Shown in pieces: positions 240-34,171 of a stretch of 64,000 nt of DNA (positions within the stretch are counted from its first letter, which is position 1; every line of letters begins with the position of its first letter). Position numbers and translations under genes: made by a program. The notes under the pieces were generated by a model. The model did not search any database. It saw nothing but the letters and a program-made list of their open reading frames with translations, and was not told where the DNA came from. This stretch comes from an uncultured Chloroflexia bacterium (GTDB lineage Bacteria > Chloroflexota > Limnocylindria > QHBO01): the NCBI GenBank assembly GCA_963837425.1, contig CAWINH010000002.1:355175-419174 (forward strand). The letters are read 5' to 3'.

Positions 240-1581
240 ATGAAGCGACTCGTGCTGGCCGCCTGCATCGGCGTCCTCTCGCTCTGGCTTCCGTCCGGGA
301 TCGTGCGGGCCGCCGGGCCGGCAACGCCGCTCGAGCACCTGGTCGTGCTCATGCAGGAGAACCACACGTTCGACAACTATTTCGGCACCTACCCCGGCGC
401 GGATGGGATACCGGCCGGGCGTCTGCATGCCGGTCGATCCGGCGGCCCCTGACGGCGAGTGCATCGCGCCGTTCCATCTCGGCGACCTGAACGTCACTCT
501 CGATGACCCGGACCACTCGAACACGACGAGCGTGCTCCAGTACGACGGGGCAAAGATGGACGGCTTCGTCTACGCCCTCGACCAGAAGAACCAGGACGGG
601 CGCCTGGCGATGATGTACTACGACGGCGGCCAGATGTACCCTACTACTGGAACCTCGCGGACCAGTACGTGCTGTTCGACCGCTGGTTCAGCTCGTTCGC
701 CGGCCCCAGCTTCACGAACCACGTGTACTGGGTGACCGGGTCGCGGACCCGACCCGAATCCCGCCATCCAGAACCTCGACGCCTTTCCCACCATCTTCGA
801 CCGGCTGGAGGCGGCCGGAGTCAGCTGGAAGTTCTACGTCGAGAACTACGAGCCGGGCCACCATCGGCCCCGCTACAGCACCCGGCCGATCGCCGGCCCA
901 GGTCGTCTGGATGCCGTTGCTCAGCTACGACCGTTTCGTCGACGATCCCCAGCTGAACAGCAAGATCGTGGACCTCGAGCAGTACTACACGACCGCCAAG
1001 GGCAGCCTCCCGGCGGTCGCCTACATCGCCCGGCCGGGGCCAGCGAGCATCCGCCGGGAAGCATCCGGTCCGGCCAGCGCCTCGTCCGCCGCTCGTCCAG
1101 GCTGATGCGGATCAGCCCGTGGGACTCCTCGGCGCCTCTGGTCACTACGACGACTGGGGAGGCTGGTACGACCACGTGACGCCCCCGCAGGTCGACGCCT
1201 ACGGGTACGGGTTCCGGGTCCCCGCCTTCCTGGTCGGCCCATACGTCCGGCGTGGGTACATCGACAGCCTCACGCTCGATTACACCTCCGCGCTGAAGTT
1301 CATCGAGGTCAACTGGGGCTCGCGCCGCTCCGGTCGCGAGCCGCAGGGCCGAAGCCTTCCTCGACGCCTTCGACTTCACGAAGCCGCCCCGGACTCCGGT
1401 GATCTTCGGGATGGAGCGGACGACCGTCAGCCTTGGGCAGGGCGCGCACCGAGAGGTGATCTACGTGGCCTATGCGATCGCCGTGCTGCTCGTCATCGGC
1501 GCCATTGCGCTCGCCGCCATGCGCCGTCGCCGGGAGTCCGAGGTCGGATGGGAGGCGTCGCAGCAGGGCCCCGCCCCATGA
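240..1581 (+). pseudogene. Phospholipase C / acid-phosphatase family phosphoesterase (PF04185-like), secreted with C-terminal TM anchor, disrupted by at least 5 frameshifts
   Basis: Consecutive ORF pieces in different frames (240, 403, 669, 911, 1119, 1399) together rebuild a single phosphoesterase. Motifs seen: LVVLMQENHTFDNYFGTYPG, GYGFRVPAFLVGPYVRRGY and the C-terminal AFLDAFDFTKPP followed by a hydrophobic anchor. It ends with an ATGA overlap into the next gene. Confidence 0.6.
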
Positions 1582-3515
1582 GGCGCACGATGCTGGCGCG
1601 CGGCGTCGTGCTCGGTTGCCTGGCGATTGCGCTCTCCGTTGCCCACGCGCGCGGCGCCGGACCGATCCGGACCACGATTGCGATTCGCCCGCCGGCGGCG
1701 GTGGCCCTCGGCGACCATCCGGAGGTGGTCGTCGACGTGCGTGTGACCGGTGGCGGCCCGTTGCGCGGAGCGCCCGTCGAGCTGAGCATCGATGGCGTTC
1801 TGTACCGGCGCCATTCGACCGATGGCTCCGGCGCCCCGCCCTTCACCCTGCCGAACGACCTGGCGGCCGGCGACCATCGGATCAGCGCCTTCTATCCCGG
1901 TCTGTCGACGACCTACCTGGCTACCTCGACGACCGCGACCCTGGTGGTGAATCCGTTCGAGCTGACGATCGAGACCGTCCCGTCGCTGCCCGGCATGCCG
2001 TTCACCCTCGACGGGGAACGCTTCGTGGCGGGCGACGACGGGGTCGCGCGGACGACGGTGAGCGCCGTCGGTGAGCACGTGCTCGTCGCCCTCCCCGAGG
2101 AGTACCAGCCGGGCGCCCTGCGTGCCGAGTTCAGCCGCTGGAGCGCCGGCAACGAGTTCCGGCCCCAGCTGACGATCAGCGTGCCGAACGTCGGCCCGCT
2201 GCAGGCCGGGTTCGACGTCTTCAGGCCCATGTCTCAGAGCTTCATCGACCTGTCGGGAGCTGCGATCGACCCGGGACGCATCACCTCGATCACCCTCCGC
2301 AGCAGCCTCGGCGAGGTGCTGACCTACCCCGACGGGCAGTCGCGCTTCTTCAAGGCCAGCCGCACGGTCCACCGCTCATCGGGGCTCGAGCCCGTCGACG
2401 TGCGGTACAACGTCACCGACGTCGAGGTCGACGGCTCGAACGTCGTGAATGCCGGTCAGCAGCAGCTCTACGTGACGCCCGATGCGGTCTGGCGCATCAC
2501 GCTCCTCCTCTATTCAGCGCGAGTCCAACCCAAGGACGCGTTCTTCGGCTTCACCGCCGGAAGCTCGATCGAGGTGATCTACCCGAGCGGGAAGACGGAG
2601 GTGGTTCCGGCTGGGCCCGATGGCGTGGTGGTGGTCCAGGGCCTGGCTCGAGGCATCTACCGGATGACGGTCGCCGACGCGCCGGGCTGGGCGCCGGCAA
2701 TGCCGGTCGCACTGTCGAGGGATCAGCAGGTCGAGCTGCGGGTCGTGAGCTGGGTCGACATGGCCGCCGCCGCGCTCGTCGGCTTCGTCGTCCTGTTCGG
2801 ACTCCTGATCCGTGGCCGACCGCACCTCATTGGCAGCACGTCGAGGCCTGTCGGCGAGGTCACGGCCGAGCCGGGAATCCCGTGGCCGGCCGGCTCCCCG
2901 CTGGCGCTGGCCCGGGCCGAGATCGAGGTGGCTCCTCCCGAACCCATCGAACCGCAGCTGGCCGAGGCGGAGCCCGTGAGCCTGACGACCGGCCGGATGC
3001 GCCCGCTGCTCGCCAGCCTGCCCGTCGAGTCGACCCTGGAAGGAGCCGCCTCCCGGCGGGTCGGCGTGAGCGAGCGGCGGAGGGGTGAGGATCAGCGCGT
3101 CTTCGGCTCGAGTGCGCTGCTCGCGTCACCGTTGCGCGGGTACGACCTCGGGGCAACCGATCGGGCCACGGCGCCGCGCGCACCGGCCACGCTCCACCGG
3201 CGACTGACATCTGCCCGCAATGGGAGGGTCCTCAAGGTCCTCTCGACGGTGCCGGTGAGGCCGGTGAACGTGGTCGACCCGGCGCTTCGAATACCCACCA
3301 CCAGGGCCGCGATCCGTCACGATCCGGCACCGACCGTGCCGCGGGTCGAATCGGCCCATCCGGCGACCTCCGAGCCAGTCTGCGAGGCGTGCGGATCGCG
3401 CCTGTGGGGCGGGGCGCTGTACTGCGAGGAGTGCGGGCGCCGGGTTCGCGAGCCGCGGCGCGTAAGCATCGGCTCGCCGGCCCGCGAGGCCGGCCCGCGA
3501 GGCTCGCCGGCATGA
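1578..3515 (+). CDS. Membrane protein, paralog 1: signal peptide, Ig-like (Big-type) beta-rich ectodomain, single TM helix, disordered cytoplasmic tail, C-terminal zinc ribbon (CEACGSRLWGGALYCEECG)
   Basis: Intact 645 aa ORF starting at the ATG at 1578. The N-terminus (MRRTMLARGVVLGCLAIALSVAHA) is hydrophobic. The ectodomain has a repeated pattern V.V.V.GGGPL.G.PVELS.DG typical of bacterial Ig-like folds. A TM helix (MAAAALVGFVVLFGLLIRGRPHL) precedes a C-terminal CxxC-(11)-CxxC. It is about 70-75% identical to the next gene across the ectodomain and TM region. Confidence 0.6.
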   Translation: MRRTMLARGVVLGCLAIALSVAHARGAGPIRTTIAIRPPAAVALGDHPEVVVDVRVTGGGPLRGAPVELSIDGVLYRRHSTDGSGAPPFTLPNDLAAGDHRISAFYPGLSTTYLATSTTATLVVNPFELTIETVPSLPGMPFTLDGERFVAGDDGVARTTVSAVGEHVLVALPEEYQPGALRAEFSRWSAGNEFRPQLTISVPNVGPLQAGFDVFRPMSQSFIDLSGAAIDPGRITSITLRSSLGEVLTYPDGQSRFFKASRTVHRSSGLEPVDVRYNVTDVEVDGSNVVNAGQQQLYVTPDAVWRITLLLYSARVQPKDAFFGFTAGSSIEVIYPSGKTEVVPAGPDGVVVVQGLARGIYRMTVADAPGWAPAMPVALSRDQQVELRVVSWVDMAAAALVGFVVLFGLLIRGRPHLIGSTSRPVGEVTAEPGIPWPAGSPLALARAEIEVAPPEPIEPQLAEAEPVSLTTGRMRPLLASLPVESTLEGAASRRVGVSERRRGEDQRVFGSSALLASPLRGYDLGATDRATAPRAPATLHRRLTSARNGRVLKVLSTVPVRPVNVVDPALRIPTTRAAIRHDPAPTVPRVESAHPATSEPVCEACGSRLWGGALYCEECGRRVREPRRVSIGSPAREAGPRGSPA

Positions 3516-6043
3516 GCCGATCGGTCGTCGGATGGGGATTCGGGCTGGCGCTGCTGGTGGCGATCCTCTCGATCGGGCAGGCCCAGGCGGCGGGTCCCCT
3601 GGCCGTGGGGGTCAGCTTCCGGCCGGTCGACCCCGTCGTCATCGGCAACGGCGCGACCGTCGTCGTTGAGCTGCGCGTGGTGGGTGGCGGGCCGCTGTCG
3701 GGGGAGCCGGTGGAGCTCAGCCTCGACGGGACGTACTACCGTCGCTCACGCACCGATGCCTCGGGCGCCGTGGCGTTCCCCCTTCCCAAGGACCTTGTGG
3801 CCGGTACTCACCCGCTGACCGCGGTCTATCCGGGACGTTCGAACACCTACCTGCCCGCGAGCGCGAAAGCGTCGCTCGAGGTTACCCCGTACCAGCTCCA
3901 GGTCCAGACCGTGCCGTCGCTTCCCGGGATGGGGTTCACCCTGGATGGGACCCGCTTCGTGGCGGGTGCCGATGGGTACGCTCGCATCCCGGTGTCGACC
4001 CCCGGCGATCATGTGCTCATCGCGCTCGACACGGAGTATGCGGCCGCCGGCACCACGGCGCAGTTCTCGCGGTGGACAGTCAACAACGAATACAGCCGCC
4101 AGGTGACGGTGAGCGTCCCGAAGGTCGGCCCGGTGCAGGCCGGATTCGACGTCTCCCGACCGGCCAGCCAGGTGTTCGTGGATCCGAGCGGGGGGCTCGT
4201 CAAAGCCGATCGCATCACGTCGTTCACCCTGCGGAGCAGCCTTGGGCAGGTGCTGACCTATCCCGACGGCCGGGAACGCGTCTACAAGGCCAGCCGCGTC
4301 GTGCGCCGCTCATCGGGCCTCGAATCGGTTGACGTCCGCTACAACGTCACCGATGTCGAGGTCGACGGTTCGAACGTTGTGAACGCCGGCCAGCAGCACT
4401 TCTACACCGCCCCCGACGCGGTCTGGCGGATCTCCCTGCTTCTCTACTCCGCGCGCATCCAGGCCAAGGATGCCCTGTTCGGTTTCACCGCCGGCAAGGC
4501 GGTGGAGATGATCTACCCGAGCGGGAAGTCGCAGATCGTCGACGTCGGGTCCAACGGCGAGGTCTACATTCCCTGGCTCGCGCGCGGGATCTACCGCGTG
4601 GCCGTGGCGGATGCCCCCGGCTGGGCCCCGTCCATGCCGGTCGCCCTCTCCCGCGACCAGGAGGTGGAACTTCGTGTCATCAGCTACCTCGACATGGGCG
4701 TCGCGGGGGCCGTGGCCCTGATCGTCATCTTCGGGCTCCTGCATCGCGGACGGCCGCACCTCATCCGCGACGCGGCGCGGGCGGTAGGTGCGGGTGTGTC
4801 CGGGCTGCGGCTGCCGCTCCCGGGAGCGGCTCACGCGCCCGCAGCCATGCGGCGGCCCGCGGAAGGGGAGCCGACGGCGAATGCCAGCCCACCACCCGTC
4901 GTCGCCAGCCCCCCACCCGTCTTGGCCAGCGCACCGAGCACTGCCACCCAGCAGCCGCAGCTCGCCCAGCAGGCAACCGAGGGCAGCGCGAAGGTCGCGC
5001 CGATCCTGGCAACGATTGCCAGGCGGTCGGACATCGACGCACTCGACCGCGTGGCTCTCGCCCACCATCGGACGATGGGCGTCAACGTTCCGGTGAGCCC
5101 CGACCTGATCGAGCTGGCGCCCTCGCTCTTCGGTCCGCAGGTCGACGAGCCCCCGCCCCCGACGAAGCCGAGGCCGACACCTCTTCCTCCGTTGCGGGCA
5201 CCCGAGAGCGCGGTCGGGGACGCAGCGCCGGCTCCGACCCCCGCAGCGCCGGCTCCGACCCCCGCAACGCCGGCTCCGGCCGAGCTCGCCGCGGAAGCGG
5301 CACCAGGCGTTGCCGATGAGTCGCTGCCATCGAAGCCCGCCCGGACCAGGCGGGCTGCAAAGCGTCCCACCACGAAGAAGGTGACGGAACCGTCGAAGGC
5401 CGTCAGGGCGAAGCGATCAACGGCCAACGCGGCACCCGCGGACGCCACGAGCGCCCCGAAGCGCGCGGCTGCGCCGAAGGCTGCCAAGACGAAGGTTCCC
5501 CGAAAGAAGGCAACCGCCACGACACCGGCGCGACGAGCGCCGGCGAAGGCCGCGAGTCGGCAGACGTCCGCATCGGCGAAGCGGACGGTCCGGAAGAAGG
5601 CGGCTCCAAGCGCTCCGCGCCGCGATTCGAGCCGGACGGTATCGGCGACTCGTGCGAGCTCGACCACGCCGGCATCCGGCACCCGGGAGACTGGCGGGAC
5701 CCGGCCGTCACGCACCCCCCGCAAGCCAGCGGCGGGGCGCTCGAGCCAGGCGGCGGTGTCGGGGGCCGCCGGGCAGCCGGTGGATGAACCGACCGAGACC
5801 CCGCCCAAGGGCGCGGAGATGCAGGCATGCCGCAACTGCGGGCTCGAGCTGTGGGCGGGCGCATCGTATTGCCGCCGCTGCGGCGAGCCGACGATTGGCG
5901 CCGGCGCCACGGACGATGCGCCGAGCGCTGGCCCACGCAGTCCGAAGCGGACGGCGACGCCTCGCGGTCGCAGTCGCCGCCGGCCGGCCACCCCCTCGGC
6001 GGGTTCCACTCGGGCCCGCGGCTCACGGCGAGGCAAGGGATGA
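3512..6043 (+). CDS. Membrane protein, paralog 2: same architecture as 1578-3515 but with a ~360 aa Lys/Ala/Pro-rich histone-H1/HU-tail-like cytoplasmic region before the C-terminal zinc ribbon (CRNCGLELWAGASYCRRCG)
   Basis: Intact 843 aa ORF whose ATG at 3512 overlaps the upstream stop (ATGA). It shows high identity to paralog 1, for example ITSFTLRSSLGQVLTYPDG and VDVRYNVTDVEVDGSNVVNAGQQ. The tail contains KRAAAPKAAKTKVPRKKATATTPARRAPAKAA-type repeats and an APAPTP tandem repeat at the DNA level (5215-5285). Confidence 0.6.
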   Translation: MSRSVVGWGFGLALLVAILSIGQAQAAGPLAVGVSFRPVDPVVIGNGATVVVELRVVGGGPLSGEPVELSLDGTYYRRSRTDASGAVAFPLPKDLVAGTHPLTAVYPGRSNTYLPASAKASLEVTPYQLQVQTVPSLPGMGFTLDGTRFVAGADGYARIPVSTPGDHVLIALDTEYAAAGTTAQFSRWTVNNEYSRQVTVSVPKVGPVQAGFDVSRPASQVFVDPSGGLVKADRITSFTLRSSLGQVLTYPDGRERVYKASRVVRRSSGLESVDVRYNVTDVEVDGSNVVNAGQQHFYTAPDAVWRISLLLYSARIQAKDALFGFTAGKAVEMIYPSGKSQIVDVGSNGEVYIPWLARGIYRVAVADAPGWAPSMPVALSRDQEVELRVISYLDMGVAGAVALIVIFGLLHRGRPHLIRDAARAVGAGVSGLRLPLPGAAHAPAAMRRPAEGEPTANASPPPVVASPPPVLASAPSTATQQPQLAQQATEGSAKVAPILATIARRSDIDALDRVALAHHRTMGVNVPVSPDLIELAPSLFGPQVDEPPPPTKPRPTPLPPLRAPESAVGDAAPAPTPAAPAPTPATPAPAELAAEAAPGVADESLPSKPARTRRAAKRPTTKKVTEPSKAVRAKRSTANAAPADATSAPKRAAAPKAAKTKVPRKKATATTPARRAPAKAASRQTSASAKRTVRKKAAPSAPRRDSSRTVSATRASSTTPASGTRETGGTRPSRTPRKPAAGRSSQAAVSGAAGQPVDEPTETPPKGAEMQACRNCGLELWAGASYCRRCGEPTIGAGATDDAPSAGPRSPKRTATPRGRSRRRPATPSAGSTRARGSRRGKG

Positions 6044-6387
6044 GGGCCGTGAAGCGTCTGACGCTGATCTGGTGCGCGGCCATTCTTGTGACGGCCGGCC
6101 TGGCGGGACCACCCCCGGCGGCTGCGGCAAGCCCCGGAGCCTCGCCGATCCCGGTCCTCGCCTATTACTACATCTGGTATGACCCATCGTCGTGGGATCG
6201 GGCCAAGTCCGACTATCCGATGCTCGGCCGCTACTCGAGCGACGATATCGAGGTCATGCGCCAGCACATTCGCTGGGCCAAGGATGCGGGGATCTCCGGA
6301 TTCATCGTCAGCTGGAAGAGCACCACGACCCTGAACCGCCGCTTGGAACAGCTGATCCAGGTCGCGGATCCGAATCGTTCGAGCTAG
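6040..6387 (+). pseudogene. Truncated secreted glycoside-hydrolase-like protein: signal peptide plus the first ~90 aa of a TIM-barrel-type domain
   Basis: ATGA overlap with the upstream gene. The sequence MRAVKRLTLIWCAAILVTAGLAG looks like a signal peptide. It is followed by YYYIWYDPSSWDRAKSDYPMLGRYSSDDIEVMRQHIRWAKDAGISGFIVSW, which resembles the N-terminus of GH99-like / GHL-type hydrolases; the family assignment is uncertain. The ORF stops after 115 aa exactly where the GC content drops. Confidence 0.35.
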
Positions 6388-8989
6388 CAATCAGTTATCC
6401 AGGGGCTGCAAAACCAACAACGGCTCCGCTCGACGCGACGCACATCGCCACAACCTCGACCAGTTCATCGGGGATTACGCCACCGATGCAGCATTCAACA
6501 TATCAGCAGGCCACTCGTCCTCTCATCAAGGACCTCGGGAGTACAGCGTCGCCGAACATGAGGAGCATCATCAATTCGACGAAGCACGACGCCTGCGGCT
6601 CCGAGCAGCGAATTCGCCCCGGCATCGTGACACTGCTTTGCAGCGACTGAAGTAACGAAGGATCACCGTTTGGCGGGCATCGTCGACGGCGATGCGTACT
6701 ACGTATTCGGTGGAACCCGACCGCGTAGCCCGAATACCCCGCCCAAGCTCGCCCGGAGTGCGAGATACAATGAAGGAACCAGCGGATCTCGATCGCCCCG
6801 GCGGGGCCGGGCTTCGATGCCGTCTGATCGGGGCACAACGGTCGTTGAATCGGAAGGACAGCGACACCCTGCGACGGGAGCTCGATGCGGCCTACGGTTC
6901 CTGGCCGGACACGGTGGGGGTCATCGAGCTCAACGGGTTCAGAAGGAACGGCGAGGTCGAGCCGAGCCTGAACTACAGCAACAACTAGCTCTGGGTCCCT
7001 CGCTGACATGATGGACAACGGGCACCAGAGGATACCCGATCTCGACTCGCCGCAGCCGACCTGGGTACCGTCTCGACGCCCGGGAACGACATGGTCGAGC
7101 CGGATCCTCACGCTCTGCCTCATCGTCGGGCTCCCCTCATCAGGAAGTAAGCATTCATCATTCACAGCAGACAAAGTAAGGCCGATTTCGGCTCGGCGTA
7201 CAGCGGCTGATCCCCGCCGAACGCGAGACAGACCGTCAAGAACAAGATAAAGAGGTGAAGGATGACGACCGCGCTGGAGGAGTCGGACTCATCCAGATTT
7301 CTTCACTAGGCGGCGGCTCCGCGCCTGCCGCTCTGCGTGAAGACGAAGCCGCGTGTTCGGCTTCACTCGCCCTCGACAGATCAGCGATAGTATCCCGACG
7401 TCGCGCTCGAGAAGATCAGCTCCTCGGCCGATGGAACAAGCTGAAACCAACCGCCCCAACGGCATCGACGATGGGGACTCAAGGTCCTGATGCACGTCGC
7501 ACATCGAACACACGAACCGCCGGATCGGGTCAAGAAGCTCGGGGGGAGTTCCGCTGGACGGATCAGGAACCAGCATCGCGCGCCGTCCAGCGCGAGCTGG
7601 CGACGACCCGACCCAGCACCCAGGCGGTGGTGATGGCGATTCGGAATGCGCACGAATACCGATCCAGATCGTGCTGCCCGGTGGCGAGGATGCGCCTCGG
7701 TGCCGCTGACCGTCGAGAGCGGGGCCGAGGCACGATGAGGGACCGTCGCGTGGCCGGGGGGTCCGGCCGGCCGGCCGTGCCGTGATCGAACAGTCGTTGC
7801 TGACCGGGGGCCTGGTCGCCGCCGGCCCCTTGCCGTCGCATTGCTCCTCGCCACCCTGCATGCCGATGACCCGGCGGACGGGCGTCGAGACCCGGGCTCC
7901 GGAGCCGGGGGAGCGGCATCATCTCGGGCCCCGCGTCGCCGAGCGCATCGCCGGTAGACCGCCGCCCGCCTCAGCGAGCCCAACCGCCTCGAGCACCGTC
8001 TCGGCTCTGCCCTCCCCACGGCACGACGCCTCCCGCCCGCCCGTCCCCAGTTAGGCACGCCCACCCGGCACAGCCCAGCCCGCCGGCCGAAGCCACAGGC
8101 CGACCACAGGCCGACGGCCGCGCTGCCGAGGCCGATCACAGCGACGTCCCGGCGCATTTTGCAATTCCGCGCCGCGTTTCTACTAGCATGGTTTCCCGAG
8201 GCATGGAAGCAGCAGGAAATGATTCCTTCCGCTCACTATCGACCATCGATCAGTTTCTGCGATCGAGAATCGAGCCGCGTGGTGAGAGAAACCCAGAGTC
8301 GCCGCGATCCGGTACCGGAAGGATCAGGTCGGATGCTCGCGTCGTCGTAGGAACACGGCAACCAGTTCAACGACGGGATGACCGAGCTCCTCAGCGCCAC
8401 GGCGCCGGACGACGTTCCGGTGGACGGTCTGCTGCGGGGGCAAGAGCCCGGGCGACCATCGGCCTCCCGGTCCACGAGCGAAGCCTGCGCGTACCTGCGC
8501 CCGATACAGCTGCGGATCAGCGCCGGGCTTCTTCCGAGTCGACGTCGGGTGGTGGACTTCATCTACGCCGACGGCGCGGACCGCTGCGGCATCCATGGAG
8601 AATCGCTCGTCAGCGGCCGACGTTGGCATCGGGGCCTACATCGTCCTCAGGTCTTTAGCGGCTTTCGCTCCTGCGGCAACCGAGCCCGCTGGCTCGCACC
8701 AGTGCAGCCCCTGCGGTCTAAATCGTTGAGCGCAGGCCAGCTCAGCTACGTCATGGCTTCCCAGGCTTTCTGGAAGGCGGACAGAGGCCACCGCGCGGCT
8801 CCCGGCGCGACGTCGCGCGATCGTCGCCGGAGCGGGCGTCGGCATGGTCGGCAGCGGACCCCGTTCCAGCTCGTCACGACGTTCAACGATGGGCGAAGGG
8901 ACGGGCGTCGAGAGCGCGACCGACTCGGCGTCGTCGTCGGGATTTCCGACAGTACCTCGACATCCTCCACCGACGCGAGTGCAGATACG

Positions 8990-10405
8990 TAGGCCGCGTC
9001 CCGGCTCAGCCTGGAGCGGGACCGTGCTGACCTGGCCGTCGGGCGTGTCACGCACCTCGATGCCCATGGCCGCCAGCTCGCCGCGGAGCGCATCCGAGGT
9101 GGCGTAGTCGCGGGCCTCCCGGGCGGCTGCGCGGCGTTCGAGGAGCTCCGCGGCGCCCCGGGCAGCTCGGTCGGCGCCGCCTCGGCCGGGGTCGAGCCCA
9201 GGCCCAGCACGCGGTCGAAGTCCAGCAGCAGCGCGCGGCGCTGGGCCGGCCGAGGTCGTCGGCGCCCGCCACGGCGTGCGCGACCGCCAGGGCGGCCGGC
9301 AGGCCCAGGTCGTCGCTGACCGCGTCGACGAAGCGGGCGCGGTAGGAGGCCAACGGCTCGGCGGCGAGGTCAACACGGCTGGCCGATCCGGCCTCGGCGG
9401 CCGCCCGACGCAGGCGCCGCAGGCCGGCGCTGGCGGCCTGCATGGCGTGTTCGGTGAAGTCGAGCTTGGACCGATAGTGGGCAGTGAGCGCCAGGTAGCG
9501 GAAGGCGAGCGGCTCGAAGCCCTTGGCGGGCAGGTCGGTGACGCGGATGATGTTCCCCGCCGACTTGGCCATCTTGGCCTCCGCCATGGTCAGGAACTCG
9601 CCGTGCATCCAGATGCTGACCACCGGATGACCCAGCACGCCCTCGCTCTGGGCGATCTCGTCCTCGTGATGGGGGAACTTGAGGTCGATCCCGCCGGTGT
9701 GGATATCGAACTGCTCGCCGAGGTACTTGACGCTCATGGCGGAGCACTCGATGTGCCAGCCCGGGAAGCCCTCGCCCCACGGCGACGCCCACTTCATGAC
9801 GCGACCCGGCTCGGCGGCCTTCCACAGCGCGAAGTCCTCCGGGTCGCGCTTGTCGGTCTCGACCTCGACGCGATGGCCGGCCCTCATCTGCTCCAGGCGC
9901 TGCCCGGACAGCTTCCCGTAGCCGGTGGGAAGGCGCTGACGTCGTAGTAGACGTTGCCCGCCACCTCGTAGGCCAGCCCGTTCTCCAGCAGGGCTGCCGT
10001 CATCTCGATCATCTCCCCGATGTGCTCGGTCGCGCGCGGCATGACGTCGGCGGGCGCCATGTTGAGCAGCCGCTCGTCGGTCAGCCAGGCATCGGTGTAG
10101 AACTCGGCGATCTGGGCCGGGGTCTTGCCCTCGACTTCGGCGGCCATCAGGATCGGGTCTTCGCCGGTCTCGCGCATGTGGCCCACGTCGGTGATGTTCT
10201 TCACGTAGCGGACCTCGTAGCCGAGGTACTCGAGACGCGCGCAGCAGGTCCCCGAACAGATAGGTCCGCAGGTTGCCGATGTGCGCGTAGCGGTAGACGG
10301 TGCTGCCGCAGGTATAGATCCCGACGCGTCCGGCGAGACGGGGACCAGCGGCTCGACCCGGCGCGTGAGCGAGTTGTAGAGGCGAATGGGAGGCAGGGGC
10401 GCCAT
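8990..10405 (-). pseudogene. cysS: Cysteine--tRNA ligase (CysRS) disrupted by at least 3 frameshifts (pseudogene of a paralog, or assembly indels)
   Basis: The N-terminus MAPLPPIRLYNSLTRRVEPL and the segment LEYLGYEVRYVKNITDVGHMRE sit in one frame. YTCGSTVYRYAHIGNLRTYLFGDLL, HIECS and the KMAKSAGN (KMSKS-like) motif sit in another frame. The C-terminus, ending ...LRGELAAMGIEVRDTPDGQVSTV, is in a third frame. The 3' end coordinate is approximate. Confidence 0.6.
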
Positions 10406-23384: not shown

Positions 23385-23610
23385 GCGTGCGTCTCCTGTA
23401 TTCCGCTGCTGGTGCGGGACCACGTGTCCCCGTGTTCTGCACGGCCGCCGGGTGCCCAAAGGCGACCCGGCTTGCCATGCACCAACGAGGCTAGGTGCAC
23501 CGATGGAGGCCGGCATCCGCGAGACCACCCAATCTGCAGCGGTGGCCTGATCGGTTACGGCGGTCTGCACGCACTGAAGCGGGCAGAGGTTGGGCCTGGG
23601 TGGTGAGGCC

Positions 23611-24747: not shown

Positions 24748-24780
24748 GGTACGAAGGGTGTCGAGGCGAACCGTCTTGCC

Positions 24781-25611
24781 TCAAAGGCGTGGTGGGCCGC
24801 GACGGATCCGCTCGCGGACCGTATCCGCCGACTGATCCGATTCCCATCGGCTCTCGATGAACCAGGTCGCTCCGGCTTCCGCCATCGGCGCGAGCATTGC
24901 GCGATCGGCCGCGTGGTCGATGCCGGACGTCAGGCCGTCGACCACGATCTCGAACGGTGCGGAGGACTGCCGGTGCTCTGCCATCCAGGCCGCCACGCCG
25001 GCCACCACCTGGGGCGTGGCCTGCTCGTCGTCACTCGCCCCCGACTTGTCGGAGACGATGATGCCGTCCCAGCGTGCGCAGCGTCGTAGGGACCTCGGGT
25101 GCGGCCAGGCGCCGACTGGCCACACCGGTATCCGCGGCCGTTGCACGGGGAGATCGAACTGGAGATCCCTCATCCAGTAATGCGTACCCTGATAGCTCAC
25201 CGTTTCGCCTGACCATGCCAGCTCCAGGATGTCCAGGCATTCGTCAAGCTTCTCGGCGCGCACGCGCCGCGACGGGTCTTCGGAGCTGACGCGTGAATAG
25301 CCTCCGTCCCAGGTTCCGCCCAGGCCGACCGGCAACACGAATCGGCCATTCGACAGGTTGTCCACCGTGATCGTCTCGCGCGCCACCTTCCACGGTCGAC
25401 GACGCGCGATGGAGAAGACCATGGCACCCAGCGTCACCCGTTCCGTGACGGCCGCCATGGCTCCCAGCACGACCCAGGGATCAAAGACACCGCCGCGCTC
25501 GACGGAGATGTCGTCCCAGGCGAACACCCCGTCCCACCCGGCGGCTTCCGCATCTCGCGCCATGGCCACGTAGTCGTGAACCGTTCCGAACGAGGTGACG
25601 ACGCCGAACTT
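24781..25611 (-). CDS. Luciferase-like monooxygenase (LLM) family, probably F420-dependent oxidoreductase
   Basis: GTG start VKFGVVTSFG with an AAGGAG RBS; TIM-barrel LLM pattern ...GRFVLPVGLGGTWDGGYSRV... Confidence 0.55.
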   Translation of the reverse strand, partial: KFGVVTSFGTVHDYVAMARDAEAAGWDGVFAWDDISVERGGVFDPWVVLGAMAAVTERVTLGAMVFSIARRRPWKVARETITVDNLSNGRFVLPVGLGGTWDGGYSRVSSEDPSRRVRAEKLDECLDILELAWSGETVSYQGTHYWMRDLQFDLPVQRPRIPVWPVGAWPHPRSLRRCARWDGIIVSDKSGASDDEQATPQVVAGVAAWMAEHRQSSAPFEIVVDGLTSGIDHAADRAMLAPMAEAGATWFIESRWESDQSADTVRERIRRGPPRL

Positions 25612-25763
25612 CACTGTTCCGCTCCTTGCGTTGAATGCGCGGCGGCAGCTTCGACGCCTGGCCGAGGCCGCCTGACGTGCGTGCTCTTCGTTCAGGCTAT
25701 ACCCCGCCACGGCAGCAGGTCGGCCCACGCAAGCGGAAGCAACCGCGGCGCTAGAATCGATCC

Positions 25764-27212
25764 ATGGCAACCGAGGTCCTCGCGCCCCACGTCCCCGTCT
25801 ATCTCGCCGGCGAGTTCGTGGAGGCCGGGCCGTCCGCTCGAGGTGCGCAACCCGGCGACCGGGAGAGCTCGATCGCGACCACCTTCCAGGCCGGTCCCGC
25901 GGAGCTGGAGCGCGCAACGATCGCGGCAGTCGAGGCGTTCGCGAAGACCCGCCGCCTGGCGAGCTACCAGCGCCGCGACGCGCTGGCGCATGTGGCGCAG
26001 CGGATCAGCGAGGAGGCGGACGAGCTGGCGGAGCTGCTGACCCGCGAGTCGGGCAAGCCGATCCGCGATGCGCGGGGCGAGGTGGCGCGCGCGGCGCTCA
26101 CCTTCCGCACCGCGGGCGAGGAGGCGCTGCGCATCACCGGGGAGTGGATGCCGCTCGACTGGAACGCGGCCAATCGCGGCCGATCGGGGATCGTGCGCCG
26201 CTACCCGATCGGGCCGGTGGCGGGGATCAGCCCCTTCAACTTCCCGCTCAACCTCGCCGCGCACAAGGTCGCGCCGGCGATCGCGGCCGGGCTGCAGCAT
26301 CGTCCTCAAGCCCCCGTCGGTCGACCCGCTGGTCATGCTGCGCGTGGCGCGCTACATCGACGAGACGGACCTCCCGGCCGGCGCGGTCAGCATCCTGCCC
26401 ATGGATCGGCCCACCGGGGACGCCATGGTCCGCGACGAGCGGTTCAAGCTGCTCAGCTTCACAGGCTCCCCATCGGTCGGCTGGAAGATGAAGGCCGATG
26501 CCGGCAAGAAGAAGGTCGTCCTCGAGCTGGGTGGCAACGCCGGTGCGATCGTGGACGAGACCGCGGACCTCGACTGGGCGGTCAGCCGCCTGGTGTACGG
26601 CTCGTTCGCCTACGCCGGGCAGGTCTGCATCAGCGTCCAGCGCATCTACGTCGTGGCGTCGGTCTACGACGAGTTCGCGGCGCGCTTCGTGGCGAAGGTG
26701 CCGCGAGCTCAGGATCGGCGATCCGCTGGATCCGGCCACCGACCTGGGGCCGATGGTCGATGCCAAGGCGGTGGCGCGCACCCACGAATGGGTGACCGAG
26801 GCAATCGACGCCGGCGCCAGCGCCCTGGTCGGCGGCGAGCCGGGCGGCCTGGTCTATCCGCCAACCGTGCTCGTGGACGTGCCGAAGAGCGCGCAGGGTG
26901 TGCGGTGAGGAGGTCTTCGCGCCGGTGGTCAATCTCTTCGGGGTGCCGGACTTCGCGACGGCGATCGACGAGATCAACGACAGCCAGTTCGGGCTCCAGT
27001 GCGGGGTCTTCACGAACGACATGGAGCGGACGCTCACCGCGCACGACGAGCTGGAGGTTGGCGGGATCATCGTCAACGACATCCCCACCTGGCGGATCGA
27101 CCCCATGCCCTACGGCGGGGTGAAGGACTCGGGCCTTGGTCGCGAGGGGCTCCGCTGGTCGATCGAGGACATGACCGAGCCGCGGCTCCTCGCCTTCGCC
27201 CGGCCGCTGTGA
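25764..27212 (+). pseudogene. NAD(P)-dependent aldehyde dehydrogenase, at least 3 frameshifts
   Basis: Pieces in frames 25764, 26068, 26498 and 26898 make a full ALDH: FNFPLNLAAHKVAPAIAAG, ELGGNAGAIVDETADLDWAV, QVCISVQRIYV, GLQCGVFTNDMERT. Confidence 0.6.
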
Positions 27213-27556: not shown

Positions 27557-27588
27557 TGCCTCGGGGCCCATCGGTATACTCGGCCGCG

Positions 27589-28338
27589 GTGACGATCGAG
27601 GCGCTTCCGTTCGTGAACTGGATCTTCTGGGCGACGCTCACCGCCGGCTCGCTGCTGGTGGTGGGAGTCACTGAGCTTGCCGGCGGCACGACCCGCGGGT
27701 ATCGGCTGTTCATGGCCTGGCTGCTGGCCGCCTGCGCGGCGATCCTCCTGCTATCGGAGCTGAACCTCTCGTCGGGGACCGTTGTCGACACGACGGGTGG
27801 GATGCGCCGTCTGCTGGTGATCGCCTTCGTGGCGGGAACGATCGCGTACCTTGTCGCCTCCCTGGCCAGGCTGCCGCGCGCCGCCCTCGCGGTCGGGACG
27901 GCGCTCATCGGCGTCCTGGCGCTGGCAGCATTGGCGGTATCGGCCCCGACCTGGAGCTCCACGCTCTTCACCGGCCAGCTGATCGCGGCGGCGCTGGCGC
28001 TCGGCTCGGTGAAGGCGGCGATGTTGCTCGGCCACTGGTACCTCGTCACGCCTCGTCTCTCTCCGACGCCGCTGCGGCGGATGATGTGGCTGCTGGTCCT
28101 CGCCCTGGCCCTGCAGGGGATCCTTTTCGTCGTCGCGGTGCTGGTGGTCAGCAGCGGGCCGCTCGGCGGCCCGATCGGCCCGCTCACCTGGCTGCGCGTG
28201 CTGGTCGGGATCGTGCTGCCCCTCGGGATCACCGTGCTGGCACTCATCGCCAGTCGTGCGGCCTCGCTGCAGGCCAGCACCGGACTGCTGTACATCGGCC
28301 TGGCGTTCGTGGCGGCCGGCTCGCATCGCCGGCTCGAG
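27589..28338 (+). CDS. Polytopic membrane protein of unknown function, reading in frame into moaD with no stop
   Basis: Six or more hydrophobic helices (FWATLTAGSLLVVGV, LLAACAAILLL, LIGVLALAALAV, LVLALALQGILFVVAVLVV, VLVGIVLPLGITVLALIA). An AGGAGG RBS immediately precedes the moaD ATG at 28378 in the same frame. Confidence 0.35.
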
Positions 28339-28377
28339 TATCACGTTCCTCACTGGCGTGCCGGTTTAGGAGGCCAC

Positions 28378-28620
28378 ATGCAGGTCCGCATCCGCTTCTT
28401 CGCCACCCTCCGCGAGGCGGCAGCCGATCGCACCACGCTGACGCTGGCCGATGGCGCGTCGATCGAGGACGCGTGGGCGGAGCTCGCGTCTCAGTGGCCG
28501 GCGCTCGCGCCGCACCGCGAGTGGGTGCGGGCCGCGCTGAACGGGGCGTACACGACCTTCGACGCGCGGGTCGCCGATGGCGATGAGGTCGCCTTCCTGC
28601 CGCCGGTCAGCGGCGGCGGC
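28378..28620 (+). CDS. moaD: MoaD/ThiS-type sulfur carrier ending in GlyGly
   Basis: MQVRIRFFATLREAAADRTTLTLADGASIEDAWAEL...DGDEVAFLPPVSGG followed by a GGCGGCGGCGGC run. Confidence 0.55.
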
Positions 28621-29036
28621 GGCCCTCGGCCTGACCGATGCGCCGATCGACGTGGCGGCCCTCGAGCGTGAGCTCGCGGACACGGCTCACGGCGCCGTCG
28701 TCACCTTCGTGGGACGAGCGCGCAGGACCGCGGACGACGGGCGCGCGGTGATCGAGCTCGAGTACGAGGCCTACCACGAGATGGCGGAGTCGGTGCTGCG
28801 CCAGATTGCGCGCAGAGGCCCGCGAACGCTGGCCAGGGGTGGCGGTGGCCGTCGTGCACCGCGTCGGTGTTGTGCCGCTCGGAGAGGCGGCGGTGGCCAT
28901 CGTCACCGCCGCGCCGCATCGTGCGGCGGCCTACGAGGCGAATCGCCACGTCATCGAGGCGATCAAGGATCGTCTGCCGATCTGGAAGCGCGAGCGCTTC
29001 GCCGACGGGAGCGAATGGAAGCGCCCCGGCGCCTAG
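28600..29036 (+). pseudogene. moaE: Molybdopterin synthase catalytic subunit MoaE with one frameshift; possibly fused to MoaD (MoaX-like) through the GGC repeat
   Basis: AVVTFVGRARRTADDGRAVIELEYEAYHEMAE is in one frame, and ERWPGVAVAVVHRVGVVPLGEAAVAIVTAAPHRAAAYEANRHVIEAIKDRLPIWKRE in another (shift near 28815). Confidence 0.5.
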
Positions 29037-29620: not shown

Positions 29621-29703
29621 GGGAATCCGGATTCTAGGCGCGCGGTGCGGCCGGGGGTCGACGGGTGGCGAGCACTGGCCTCGCCGTGCAAAATGCGCGG
29701 TGA

Positions 29704-30759
29704 TGCCAACCCCCAAGCCGGGGCAGATCCGCTGCCCGACCTGTTCGCGCTCGACCCCGCCGGCGGCCTACTGCACGCAGTGCGGGTCGCCCATTCCGGT
29801 CTCGGTTCGCGCCAGACCGCGCGGTCTGGACCGCGAGGAGCTGGAGGAGCGCGTCCGCGGCCGGCGGCCGGAAGAGGCGCCGTTTCGGCGCGGCACCGAG
29901 CCGGACCCCTCCGACGTCTACCAGCCGTTCACGCCCGAGCCGGAGGACGCGCTCGCGGTTCGTGAGACGGAGGGCTCCGAGCCCGAGCCGCCGCGCGTCG
30001 ACAACGCGCCGCCGGACCTGTACGAGAGTCCTCCGGCCGCGGTCGGCGCTCCCCCCGCATGAGCAGGCTCCATCGGTCGAGGCCTGGGGTCCCGCCGATG
30101 CCGGAGGCGGCGAGGAGCCTCCCTATGCGGAGCCTCCATACGCCTCCCCGTACCTTCCCGAGGACCCGGGACGGCGCGATTCGGGCGCGCTCCCACTGCT
30201 CGGGTTCGCGGCCCTGGCCGTGATGGCGCTCGCGGTCGGCGTGATCCTGGCCGGGCTCTTCAGCCCGAGCGGGACGGCGGAGGCGTCTCCGACCCCCACC
30301 CTGGCCCCGACGGCGGCACCGACCCAGACCGCCGCCGCATCGGTGGCCCCGGAGTCGGTCGCGCCCGTGGAATCGTCAACGCCCGAACCCACCGATGGGC
30401 CGGTCACCTTCCCGGATGGCGCGATGCTGACCGTCCAGCCGTGCGGGACGTACGAGTTCCAGGATGACCTGAGCGGGTGCCTGGTCGACGGCTCGGTCCG
30501 CGACACCGGCACCGTGTGGGTTCTCGCCACGTTCAAGCGCGCCAACGGCAACGACCAGCTGTCGGTCGATTCTCCAGTCGAACGCAGACACGCTGGACCG
30601 GGTCGACCTGGCCATCGGGCAGGTCCTCCCCGACTGCTCCAATACGTGCAGCGGGCTCGTCTGGGTACGAACCTGGAAGGACCTCCAGCCGGGTACCTAC
30701 CACCTCGTCCTGCGCCGAAACGGCGGCTTCGCGGACAGCGCCGACTTCGTCGTCCAGTA
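29704..30759 (+). pseudogene. N-terminal zinc-ribbon, Pro-rich linker, TM helix and extracellular domain protein, with 2 frameshifts
   Basis: CPTCSRSTPPAAYCTQCGSP at the N-terminus. After a shift near 30040 comes the TM helix LLGFAALAVMALAVGVILAGLF and an ectodomain. After another shift near 30570 the C-terminus reads ...YHLVLRRNGGFADSADFVVQ. Confidence 0.4.
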
Positions 30760-30765
30760 GTGCGG

Positions 30766-31867
30766 TCAGGACTCGGTGTCGCTGCGCTCCCATGCCTCGC
30801 GGCTGATGCGCGTCGGCCGCGCCTCGCCTCCGGCCGCGCGTCGCCGATGGGCGAGCGCCGAGATGGCCTCGAGGACGCAGCGATGCGCCGCAGCGGCGGT
30901 GACCTCCGAGACGTCGTACGGCGGGCTCGACCTCCACGACGTCCATCCCAACCAGCTCGACCGCGGTGACGACCTGGCGGACGGCGCGCAGCAGCTCCCG
31001 GGTCAGCATCCCGCCCGGCTCGGGCGTGCCGGTCCCCGGCGCCATCCCCGGGTCGATGACGTCGATGTCAACTGAGAGGTAGATCACCTCTGGGCCGTCG
31101 AGCGCCTCGGCGATCGCATCGGCGATGACCGCCTCCGCCCCGCGCTCTTCGATCTCGGTCATGAAATGGCAGCGCAGCCCGTTCTCGCGCATCCAGGCCA
31201 CGGTGTCGGGTGGCGGCCAGTAGCCGCGCAGCCCGACCTGCACGAAGTTCCGGCCGGCGACCGCTCCCGACTCGATGAGACGGCGCATCGGGGTCCCGTG
31301 AGACCGGAGCACGCCCCACGTGGTGGCAGCGGTGTCGGCGTGCGCGTCGAAATGCACGACCCCGAGCCGCCGCGGGTCGACGGCCGCGGCGACCGCCGAT
31401 GCCGCCGGAAACGTGATCGAGTGGTCGCCTCCCAGCACGATCGGGATGGCGCCGCTGGCCGCGACCTCCGACACCTTGCGGCGAATGACCTCGTGCCCTC
31501 GATCGAGGTTTGCCGGGACCACCGGCGCGTCCCCGGCGTCCACCACGTCGAGCCATTCGAAGGGCAGGATGTCGAGCTGGAGCGAGTTGATGTCGCCCGA
31601 GTGATAGGACGCTGCCCGAATGGCGCGCGGTCCGAAGCGCGCCCCCGGACGGTTGCTGACCGCGTCATCCAGCGGCGCCCCGACGATCGCGACGTCCGGC
31701 CGACGCGAGGCGAGCTCCTCGGCGCCGGTCACGTAGGGCAGCTTCTGGAATGTGGGCAGGCCCACGTACGCGGGCAGGTCGAAGTCGTCGTAGGCGACGT
31801 AGGGATCGACGTCGCGCGGCGGATGCTCGTCGTTCACGCCACGCCGTCGGCGCATCTCGTCGACCAT
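30766..31867 (-). pseudogene. speB: Agmatinase/arginase-family ureohydrolase with one frameshift near the 3' end
   Basis: GGDHSITFPAASAV, DAHADT, SVDIDVIDPGMAPGTGTPEPGG. The C-terminus VSPPYDVSEVTAAAAHRCVLEAIS is in the neighbouring frame (30766-30951). Confidence 0.6.
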
Positions 31868-31980
31868 GGCTGGCCCCCGAACGCATCCCGGGCGGACGCC
31901 GTCGCGGCGCGGAGCAGGCCCGTCACGGGGTCACCGCCCGCGATCCTACCAGAGCGGCCTCCCCTGCTACCATCGCCAGG

Positions 31981-32304: not shown

Positions 32305-33235
32305 TCGCCCGCGGTCGCTGGTCGCGGTGCTCGGCGACGCCACGCTGGACGTCCACGCGGTCCTTGGCGAGGCTCCGCGGCGCGGCGGCGACGTCCCGGC
32401 CGTGATCGGGGTGGGAGCCGGGGGCCAGGCGGCGAACGTCGCCGTCCGGCTCGCGCGACGCGGCGTTCCGGCCCGGCTGGTCGCTGCGATTGGCGGCGGC
32501 CCGGATGGGATCCTGCTTCGCGACCTGCTCGAGATCGAGGGGCCCCGCCTCGCCCTCTTTCCCCTTCCCGGCGAACGAGCCTCGCTGGTGATCGTCCTCG
32601 TTGACCCGGACGGGGAGCGCTCGATGATCTCCGACCGGGAATCGCTGACCGCGGAGGCGCTCCCGGACGCGACCGCCGGGGCGACCTGGGTGCACTGCTC
32701 GGGATATGCGCTCGACGACGAGGAGACCGGCGCGGACGTGGCCGCGTTCCTCGCCCAGCTGCCCCGACAGGTTCGTCGCAGCGTCGCCGGCGGATCGCTC
32801 TCGCCGGATCCCGCGAGGGCCGAACGATTCCGCGCCCGGCTGAGTGCGACGCGCCCGGCACTGGCCGTGTTCGACCTCCACGAGGCGCGCGCCCTGCTCG
32901 GCGATGACCGTGCGACGCCCGTGGGTGCGGCCCGCGCGCTGGCGGCTGACGCCGCGATCGCGGTAGTGACGGCGGGGGAGGCCGGATCGTCAGCGGCGTT
33001 CGACGACGGCTCGCTCGAGGTGGCCGCGGCGCCGATCGCCGGCGACGTGCTCGATGCCACGGGCGCCGGCGACGCGTACGTCGCCGCTCTGATCGCCTGG
33101 CTTCACGACGTGCCATTTCCTCCCGACGAGGCGGTCGTCCGCGATGCGATGACGGCGGCCAGCGTGCTCGGCGGCCGCGTCGCGCGAGTCGTCGGGGCCC
33201 AGGGCCGGGTCGCGGGCGAGGAGCCCCCATCGTGA
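32282..33235 (+). CDS. psuK: PfkB-family carbohydrate kinase, probably pseudouridine kinase
   Basis: [14 protein letters not shown] motif; sits immediately upstream of psuG. Confidence 0.55.
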
Positions 33236-34171
33236 GGGCGCAGCCCGGTGGCCCGCTGACCATGGGCGAGGAGGTGAGGGCCGCCCTGGAGGCCGGCATC
33301 GGGGTGGTGGCGCTCGAGTCCAGCCTCATCGCCCAGGGCCTCCCGGCACCGGACAACCTCGAGACCGCGCGGGCAGCGGAGGCTGCGGTTCGGGAGGCCG
33401 GCGCCGTGCCGGCCACCACCGCGCTCGATGCCGGCAGGCTCCTCATCGGGGCTCCGTTCGAGGTCCTCGAGCGGCTCGCCGATCCTGGCACACAGCCGGC
33501 CAAGAGCGCGTCGCGCGACCTCGGTCCCCTGCTGGCGGCCGGCGTCGCTGGCGTCGACGACGGTGAGCGCCACGCTGCGGATCGCGCATATCGCGGGCGT
33601 ATCGGTCGCCGCCACCGGTGGGATCGGCGGCGTCCACCGTGGTGCCGCAGCCTCGTTCGACATCTCGTCCGACGTCGACGAGCTGGCCGCGACGCCGGTG
33701 GCCGTCGTCTGCAGCGGGGTCAAGTCGATCCTCGATCTGGCGGCCACGATGGAGCTCCTTGAGACGCGACGGATCCCGGTCGTGGGGCTGGGGACGGACG
33801 AGCTGCCGGCGTTCTACGCCGCGCGGTCCGGCCTCCGCTTGACGCACGTCGTCGCCGGGCCGGAGGCGGCGGCCCGGGTCGTCGGCGCGCATCGGGCCAT
33901 TCCGGGCGCCGGCGGGATGCTGCTCGTGCAGCCTCCACCAATCGAGGTCGCCCTCGAGGCCGGGGAGGTCGAGGGCTGGATCGCCGAGGCGCTCGCAGCC
34001 GCGGATCGGGCGGGCATTCGTGGCGGTGCGGTCACACCCTTCGTCCTCTCGCGGGTGGTGGCCGCCTCGGGTGGGCGAGCCCTGCGCGCGAACATCGGCC
34101 TCATCGTCAACAACGCCCATGCCGCCGGTCGGATCGCCGCCCAGCTGGCGACCATCGGGCACCGCGGCTAG
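33232..34171 (+). pseudogene. psuG: Pseudouridine-5'-phosphate glycosidase with one frameshift near 33540
   Basis: [25 protein letters not shown] at the N-terminus and [15 protein letters not shown]...[12 protein letters not shown] in the next frame. Confidence 0.6.

Follow-up and report, generated by a model that had tools for sequence, protein, structure and literature searches.

Frame switches and affected genes

Do the broken reading frames in the first 34 kb of this DNA belong to genes that are decaying in a living organism, or did they arise when the sequence was assembled? The window, by which we mean the whole analysed stretch of 64 kb from an uncultured member of the Limnocylindria (Chloroflexota), had initially been annotated with at least 30 frame switches in its first 34 kb. 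Two explanations were offered at that time, namely reductive evolution with redundant paralogs decaying, or strongly uneven consensus quality.

The codon-usage HMM yields approximately 30 frame switches in the first 34 kb. Combining the HMM with tblastn searches using intact open reading frames (ORFs) of syntenic relatives and with DNA alignments, we located at least 50 insertions or deletions (indels) of 1–2 nt between positions 400 and 33,544, which exceeds the initial count. This number is composed of 37 window-specific indels with a length that is not a multiple of three, found by tblastn and DNA alignment in 13.6 kb of alignable sequence, seven switches in the phosphoesterase gene, and at least two each in the PpoB2/DUF2182 gene, the gene at 29.66–30.76 kb and the GH99-like gene. 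The density in the alignable part of the first 34 kb is about 2.7 frame-breaking indels per kb. If an indel is bounded by the nearest stop codons of the two frames, the resulting interval is hundreds of bases wide at 70% GC. The disrupted genes are:

240–1577, plus strand: phosphoesterase (PF04185), eight frame segments, seven switches near 402, 640, 750, 895, 1031, 1146 and 1347 (HMM)
6058–7010, plus strand: GH99-like gene, at least three frames, missing from the initial list
9011–10400, minus strand: cysS, five private indels at 9158 (1-nt deletion), 9248 (1-nt deletion), 9925 (2-nt insertion), 10234 (2-nt deletion) and 10328 (1-nt deletion), from tblastn junctions (up to 36 supporting loci) and DNA alignments
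10469–12330, minus strand: MFS transporter–cNMP-binding fusion, 10809 (2-nt deletion) and 11586 (1-nt insertion)
12327–12977, plus strand: NUDIX hydrolase, frame-restoring pair in the Zn-ribbon part, 12440 (1-nt deletion) and 12517 (2-nt deletion)
13423–14661, minus strand: second fabF (fabF2), frame-restoring pair, 13832 (1-nt insertion) and 13916 (1-nt deletion)
17009–18416, minus strand: M20 peptidase, five 1-nt deletions at 17554, 18082, 18256, 18301 and 18330
18412–19300, minus strand: Caroten_synth-like membrane protein, densest patch, 10 deletions of 1–2 nt between 18614 and 19292
22089–22760, minus strand: PpoB2/DUF2182 gene, at least two switches, 22200 and 22273 (HMM; no relatives in the DNA alignment)
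25749–27209, plus strand: aldehyde dehydrogenase (ALDH), five insertions at 25833 (1 nt), 25867 (2 nt), 26289 (1 nt), 26701 (1 nt) and 26895 (1 nt)
27577–29033, plus strand: membrane protein gene followed by a MoaD–MoaE gene, 1-nt insertions at 27580, 28324, 28619 and 28810, the patch spanning gene borders
29664–30757, plus strand: gene in three frames (29664–30026, 30139–30567 and 30569–30757), HMM switch at 30568
30811–31927, minus strand: speB (agmatinase-like), 1-nt insertion at 30923 (junction in 24 loci; DNA alignment)
33226–34168, plus strand: psuG, 1-nt insertion at 33544, after which no further indel was located

All genes that had been listed as disrupted are hit, including the NUDIX hydrolase and fabF2 with one frame-restoring pair each. 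The gene at 29664–30757, for which a Pfam search gave no match, probably is the one listed as a Zn-ribbon gene; a single 397-aa ORF of locus L004 matches its first and last parts in differing frames. After repair of the frame the phosphoesterase matches PF04185 (E=7e-53), and its eight segments are collinear with residues 7–452 of an intact 458-aa homologue in L085. Repaired CysS matches positions 8–299 of the 301 of tRNA-synt_1e (E=3e-101), repaired ALDH positions 16–459 of the 461 of Aldedh (E=2e-134), and the repaired PpoB2/DUF2182 protein positions 65–161 of the 188 of PF09948 in a single stretch. For the NUDIX hydrolase, relatives possess a Zn_ribbon_Nudix and a NUDIX domain.

Comparison with orthologs in relatives had been proposed earlier. 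We find the indels absent from relatives: each one is private to the window in alignments against approximately 60 syntenic relatives. Per site, 6–12 relatives with 70–90% nucleotide identity agree with one another, and the window alone differs by one or two bases. When the indels of the Caroten_synth-like patch were localized again, the one at 18930 was not recovered and too few relatives were aligned at 19292, as was also the case when the insertion at 27580 was checked. All these comparisons are with assemblies of other species; the closest CysS among 5.8 billion proteins, and the nearest among the matches listed, has 84% identity and stems from the sister assembly L081.

Distribution along the sequence

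Three parts of the window are free of frame switches:

1578–6043, plus strand: two tandem paralogous surface-protein genes, zero frame switches, single ORFs 1119–3515 and 3389–6043
13917–17553, minus strand: clean 3.6-kb stretch with the 5' part of fabF2, fabF (14683–15965), fabD (15966–16940) and the 3' part of the M20 peptidase
34185–64000, no strand assigned: clean 30 kb in which the HMM places switches at gene borders exclusively

A 390-aa homologue from L085 matches each of the two paralogs in one high-scoring segment pair (HSP) and one frame. The same holds for fabF, fabD and both LuxR fusions in comparison to relatives, so that these genes are intact as had been claimed. Over 13917–17553 the aligned intervals (the clean part of 13500–16780, and 17100–17553) contain single-frame HSPs and no frame-breaking indel. 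Beyond 34 kb no indels are detectable by HMM, Pfam or relatives' HSPs in 34185–64000. Of the 10 ORFs tested there, nine show single-frame Pfam domains; the tenth, at 40143–41717, matches no Pfam family. Between 41.8 and 52.9 kb Rho, Obg, NadD, RsfS, HolA, an HD-domain protein, ComEC and ComEA of relatives each give one HSP in one frame, and end-to-end Pfam domain matches confirm pyrG, rho, obg, leuS, comEC and hdrA as intact. The more general statement that essential genes are intact does not hold, as cysS contains five indels.

The initial annotation had further described a gene-by-gene pattern that a uniform rate would not give. A uniform rate is indeed rejected for the per-gene counts (chi-square 43.5 vs 15 expected, P=0.0016). 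The pattern is not gene-bound, however, as the indels respect genes no better than they do after a circular shift along the sequence (P=0.49). Patches of 0.1–1.5 kb begin and end within genes and extend over gene borders: the clean stretch is bounded within fabF2 (13,917) and within the M20 peptidase gene (17,553), and the patch at 28,324–28,810 covers three genes. The unevenness tracks position and not genes.

Several neighboring indels sum to a multiple of three, yet they do so at chance frequency (P=0.20), and we rejected the frame-restoring pairs as a signal of selection.

Substitutions, stop codons and gene decay

If the genes had been inactivated very recently in the living organism, around 15 of them would each have accumulated several small indels at an early stage of genome decay. 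The second fabF, the M20 peptidase, speB and psuG look dispensable or redundant, which would suit such decay, as would the absence of a coding signal at 7000–9000, the small share of indels in homopolymers and the excess of deletions over insertions at 9–19.3 kb, since a deletion bias is known for bacterial pseudogenes. Against this stands cysS with its five indels, although the gene is intact (463–497 aa) in 120 of 120 relatives among the matches listed of 7,196. The sparing of single-copy essential genes that is expected of pseudogenization is therefore not seen in the 64-kb window, although a second copy of cysS might lie elsewhere in the genome.

Substitutions point in the same direction. 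Spontaneous base substitutions outnumber small indels in bacteria by roughly 10:1, so that decay would predict an excess of 2% to 13% substitutions. In conserved nucleotide columns of cysS and the MFS gene, 3.3% of the positions carry window-specific changes compared to 3.3% in relatives, and where amino-acid columns are conserved, the values for cysS, the MFS gene and fabF2 lie in the middle of those of relatives. The densest patch has 4.4% window-specific changes compared to 3.1% in relatives, an excess of just 1.2%. In ALDH, speB and the Rieske-to-MoaE stretch window-specific substitutions are 1.1–2.2-fold those of the average relative, a mild elevation that speaks against pure consensus errors. 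No in-frame stop or nonsense codon occurs in any locally correct frame; in fabF2 a stop codon lies at 13873–13875, between its two indels.

Many neighboring genes broken by small indels next to others that are intact are likewise found in the pseudogene-rich genomes of Mycobacterium leprae and of recent endosymbionts such as Sodalis. Pseudogenes of these organisms contain nonsense codons together with an excess of missense changes, single-copy essential genes are spared, and the damage is gene-wise. The window has none of these three traits. As its patches disregard gene borders, its indels at 25.8–33.6 kb are insertions only, and this defect affects different genes, fabD and fabF among them, in other long-read assemblies but in no short-read assembly, we consider very recent true pseudogenes very improbable. 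The proposal of reductive evolution with decaying redundant paralogs is accordingly opposed by the hit in cysS, the lack of in-frame stops and, for cysS, fabF2 and the MFS gene, of a substitution excess, and the gene-blind patches.

A related reading is a real burst of small indels over approximately 34 kb in the living Limnocylindria bacterium, which would have broken even cysS and would be too recent for substitutions to have followed. We hold such an event to be extremely improbable. Such a burst might arise, for example, if a segment of the chromosome were repaired or replicated in an error-prone manner.

The GH99-like gene, the region at 7–9 kb and recoding

The region where real lesions could hide among assembly errors is the GH99-like gene with the adjacent coding-free 7–9 kb. 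Only the N-terminal ORF of the GH99-like gene weakly matches PF16317; homologues extend beyond the stop in the window at 6388, with other-frame alignments at 6670–6765 and 6797–7009. A mixture of mostly errors and few real lesions would find some backing in L084 and L085, where the GH99-like gene consists of two ORFs as well, and at 7000–9000, where the coding score is zero even with cheap HMM frameshifts (the densest error patch scores 96) and no Pfam, Rfam or plasmid match was found. L084, however, is a long contig that is itself prone to errors and in which the phosphoesterase and Big-like genes are split as well, the GH99-like homologues among the matches listed stop at variable positions with no common lesion, and no relative covers 7–9 kb for comparison. 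Such a mixture is very improbable in our view.

We also considered whether 7–9 kb is extremely error-dense coding DNA and rejected this in view of the zero score and a weak 3-base periodicity. The same region contains no notable repeats. The split of the GH99-like gene as a conserved recoding site was rejected as well, because the ends of the homologues vary.

Programmed recoding, i.e. ribosomal frameshifting or transcriptional slippage by which the genes would be expressed despite the switches, has nothing in its favor except that frames do switch. A gene may contain as many as 10 switches, which differ in size (+1, +2, −1 and −2) and in the sequence around them, and frame-restoring neighbors are at chance level. 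Relatives share no recoding sites; no shift site that is conserved among orthologues and bears a slippery motif was found, the sites being private and many per gene. Recoding has next to no probability left and is regarded as already refuted.

Comparison with other assemblies

The frequency of frame-breaking indels was obtained for the window and its relatives in one common scan. In loci from metagenome-assembled genomes (MAGs) based on short reads, indels that are not a multiple of three amount per kb to 0 (L010, L025), 0.07 (L008), 0.08 (L021), 0.14 (L017) and 0.5 (L004), and to 0 in the JGI contig L082. Loci of Microflora Danica long-read MAGs reach 3.0 (L055), 3.7 (L079), 1.6 (L049), 0.6 (L012), 0.47 (L007) and 0.24 (L047), and the ENA contig L081 reaches 3.8. 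Long-read relatives therefore span 0.24–3.8 per kb compared to 0–0.5 in the six short-read MAG loci and L082.

In L081, 39 of 40 indels fall into the M20 peptidase, fabD, fabF, fabF2 and MFS genes, after which the sequence is clean and cysS is intact. This pattern is reversed in comparison to the window, in which cysS is disrupted and fabF and fabD are free of indels. Both this reversal and the near absence of such indels in short-read relatives further oppose gene decay.

We conclude that the frame switches are very probably uncorrected consensus errors of a long-read metagenome assembly, the platform of which we infer to be of Nanopore type. Seven proteins of the window occur in exact form on a single contig of 682,090 bp (NCBI and ENA). 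For a soil bacterium that is uncultured, such a length presumably required long reads, and this 682-kb contig may represent a long-read-only assembly. In the affected stretches the consensus would have been built on an insufficient number of reads or on badly aligned ones, with local read depth or polishing quality in the first 34 kb unlike that of the remaining window, and the underlying genome would possess intact copies of all disrupted genes. The explanation by strongly uneven consensus quality is supported because the indels are private, their rate tracks the assembly type, their clustering is positional and signs of decay are lacking; it fits every test made.

The MFD-LR catalogue was produced with Flye and one round of Medaka without short-read polishing, and low coding density of its low-coverage MAGs was tied to errors (PMC12313526). 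Nanopore bins below approximately 40x need polishing against frameshift indels (PMC9262707). As in the Nanopore-only metagenome assemblies described there (PMC12313526, PMC9262707), conserved genes of the window are fragmented by 1–2-nt indels. The patchiness and density in the window (2–4 per kb) match those of the long-read MAG loci L055, L079, L049 and L081, which belong to the same class. In contrast to these documented Nanopore assemblies, the platform of the window is inferred.

The indel profile differs from the classical Nanopore homopolymer signature. Published Nanopore errors are described with an emphasis on homopolymers, whereas only 2 of 34 indels in the window lie in runs of at least four; 12 of the 34 adjoin an identical base, and nine of the 34 re-examined are 2-nt events. 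A further difference from published errors is a deletion-dominated region (22 of 26 indels at 9–19.3 kb) together with an insertion-only region (11 of 11 at 25.8–33.6 kb). This regional bias in direction is not accounted for by consensus errors.

The finding is almost certainly an ordinary one, leftover errors of one or two bases and not decaying genes. For at least 16 genes of the first 34 kb, calling genes, counting pseudogenes and reconstructing metabolism from this contig would give wrong results, cysS, moaE, speB and psuG would falsely appear to be missing, and an interpretation as genome decay would be spurious; the same caution should apply to similar long-read MAGs of the class. Error density can change abruptly along one contig, so that genome-wide averages mask stretches that are locally unusable.

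Frame switches in the first 34 kb

With a codon-usage HMM that contained explicit frameshift states and was trained on the clean genes of the window, we found approximately 30 frame switches on the same strand in the first 34 kb; past 34 kb the model switched at gene borders only. For comparison, with FabD as query and one genome per species, approximately 57 syntenic loci were collected from MAGs of Candidatus Limnocylindria and other Chloroflexota. None of them is identical to the window (about 70% GC), the amino-acid identity is 66–89%, and their gene order is that of the window at 9–19.3 kb and 25.7–33.7 kb.

Intact ORFs of the relatives produced collinear HSPs in differing frames on the window, with a single junction backed by up to 50 loci. 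In DNA alignments with 6–12 relatives each junction corresponds to one or two bases gained or lost in the window alone. A sliding alignment scan counted 37 window-specific indels with a length not divisible by three in 13.6 kb of alignable sequence, and the total reaches at least 50 once the phosphoesterase, PpoB2, 29.66–30.76 kb and GH99-like genes are added. The frame switches of the initial annotation are real in the sequence and more numerous than the at least 30 counted there. The phosphoesterase gene lies in eight pieces, collinear with residues 7–452 of an unbroken homologue of 458 amino acids. If the frames are repaired, each protein yields one continuous Pfam domain match:

CysS (9011–10400, minus strand): catalytic domain, positions 8–299 of 301
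ALDH, aldehyde dehydrogenase (25749–27209, plus strand): Aldedh, positions 16–459 of 461
M20 peptidase (17009–18416, minus strand): M20, positions 2–205 of 206
Likewise continuous: Ketoacyl synthase, MFS plus cNMP-binding, PpoB2/DUF2182, MoaD-MoaE, Caroten_synth, Phosphoesterase

The GH99-like gene (6058–7010), which the initial annotation did not list, is spread over at least three frames. Its homologues in two relatives (L084 and L085) are likewise called as two ORFs; a conserved break was rejected, as the ends of the homologues vary.

Genes regarded as unbroken proved to be so. fabF, fabD, both paralogs and the LuxR fusions each give one HSP in one frame against the relatives, pyrG, rho, obg, comEC, leuS, hdrA and others have Pfam domain matches from end to end, and at 41.8–52.9 kb ten consecutive genes each give a single HSP in a single frame. 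There is an overlap of 244 nt (49725–49968) between the comEC ORF and the HD-domain gene that follows it. As a similar stop-to-stop overlap occurs in a short-read relative (L092), this looks like an open-frame effect of high GC and not like an indel.

Position of the indels

Indels are found in 11 of the 16 alignable genes. The initial statement that a uniform rate could not give this pattern holds, as per-gene counts reject uniformity (chi-square 43.5 versus 15 expected, P=0.0016). The pattern is nevertheless not a gene-by-gene one: if the same events are slid along the sequence, the per-gene counts become equally uneven (P=0.49), and patch limits fall inside genes. The longest clean stretch in the first 34 kb begins midway through fabF2, the second fabF (13,917), and ends midway through the M20 peptidase gene (17,553), and three insertions (28,324, 28,619 and 28,810) are spread over a membrane-protein gene, moaD and moaE. 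Unevenness therefore tracks position, with patches of 0.1–1.5 kb and a change to clean sequence near 34 kb. The densest patch, at 18.25–19.3 kb, holds about one deletion per 70–80 bases.

Comparison with other assemblies

The identical indel scan was applied to relatives as a control.

Frame-breaking indels per kb in the window and in relatives (by locus)
Short-read MAGs: L010, 0; L025, 0; L008, 0.07; L021, 0.08; L017, 0.14; L004, 0.5
JGI 315-kb contig: L082, 0
Microflora Danica long-read MAGs: L047, 0.24; L007, 0.47; L012, 0.6; L049, 1.6; L055, 3.0; L079, 3.7
ENA 544-kb contig (ERZ25039555 contig_2014): L081, 3.8
Window, first 34 kb: about 2.7

L081, L055, L079 and L049 all come from public long-read MAGs of the window's class, and in this neighbourhood their contigs show 1.6–3.8 frame-breaking indels per kb.

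Real recent pseudogenisation, the other reading of the frame switches, is opposed by the low rates of the short-read controls (0–0.5 per kb) and by L081, which carries the closest CysS (84% identity). In L081, 39 of 40 indels lie within the M20 peptidase, fabD, fabF, fabF2 and MFS genes and cysS is unbroken; the window shows the reverse, with cysS broken and fabF and fabD clean. A rule by which redundant genes decay and essential genes are spared cannot yield both patterns. At positions 1–7300 of L081, fabD, fabF and fabF2 are split into gene calls of 60–270 amino acids, and the contig is clean from near position 7300.

Seven proteins of the window have exact counterparts in the public protein collection, and all seven belong to a single contig of 682,090 bp (NCBI and ENA). 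This contig, from an uncultured soil bacterium, presumably fits the kind of data that a Nanopore-only catalogue contains. The "MFD" catalogue of the relatives was assembled from Nanopore reads only, with Flye and one Medaka round and without short-read polishing, and its authors note that MAGs of low coverage have a low coding density related to errors (PMC12313526). For Nanopore bins below approximately 40x coverage, short-read polishing was required against indels that cause frameshifts (PMC9262707). The indels are very probably an artefact of a known kind.

Selection

The claim that essential genes are intact fails for cysS, which carries five indels and is unbroken, with 463–497 amino acids, in all 120 listed of 7,196 relatives. 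Signs of relaxed selection are also missing. In the amino-acid columns that at least 90% of the relatives conserve, the window departs in 1.7% for cysS (median of the relatives 1.5%), 1.5% for the MFS gene (2.1%) and 0.7% for fabF2 (1.4%). Every locally correct frame is free of in-frame stop codons.

In bacteria, spontaneous base substitutions outnumber small indels by about 10:1, so neutral decay would add approximately 2% of substitutions in cysS and the MFS gene and 10–13% in the densest patch. Private substitutions at conserved nucleotide columns amount to 3.3% versus 3.3% in the former and 4.4% versus 3.1% in the latter. An excess of 1.1–2.2-fold in ALDH, speB and the Rieske-to-MoaE stretch could reflect misalignment around indels, substitution errors or true lineage divergence. 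Restoration of the frame by neighbouring indels is not above shuffled expectation (11 returns versus 9.2, P=0.20).

The controls, the L081 reversal, the broken cysS and the lack of both relaxed selection and frame selection favor error over biology. We therefore consider it very probable that the frame switches represent consensus errors that occur in patches of a long-read metagenome assembly, and pseudogenisation highly improbable. The consensus would have been left with small indels in patches irrespective of the gene. From the two readings offered initially, uneven consensus quality is supported by control rates and positional patches, while reductive evolution with decaying redundant paralogs is not.

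Type and direction of the indels

Among 34 indels there are 14 one-base and 7 two-base deletions, 11 one-base and 2 two-base insertions. An identical base adjoins 12 of the 34, but only two lie in runs of four or more, which differs from the classical type of Nanopore homopolymer error. Direction changes along the window, with 22 deletions versus 4 insertions at 9.1–19.3 kb and 11 insertions versus no deletion at 25.8–33.6 kb; one-base insertions predominate in the long-read relatives. Type and direction of the indels, like the substitution excess in ALDH, speB and the Rieske-to-MoaE stretch, agree only imperfectly with the error reading.

Further features of the window

The NUDIX gene and fabF2 are separated by a gap with a C-rich, poly-C-like tract (13180–13281), which would probably cause difficulty with any sequencing chemistry. 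At 7000–9000, about 2 kb have a codon HMM score of zero even with cheap frameshifts, a weak 3-base periodicity and a GC content of 0.67; matches to Pfam, Rfam or plasmids are lacking there, as are notable repeats. Such a coding gap is unusual for an otherwise densely coding genome. At 56998–58030 about 1 kb is non-coding in appearance and contains:

57192–57267: tRNA-Ala(GGC)
57643–57963: 175-nt tandem repeat, 1.8 copies, 95% matches

Compared to the short-read MAG L010, the stretch 19300–25700 additionally holds PpoB2/DUF2182, a second alpha/beta-hydrolase-LuxR fusion and two ORFs without a tested family, one of them neighbouring PpoB2/DUF2182; in L010, a single LuxR fusion separates the Caroten_synth-like gene from the ALDH gene.
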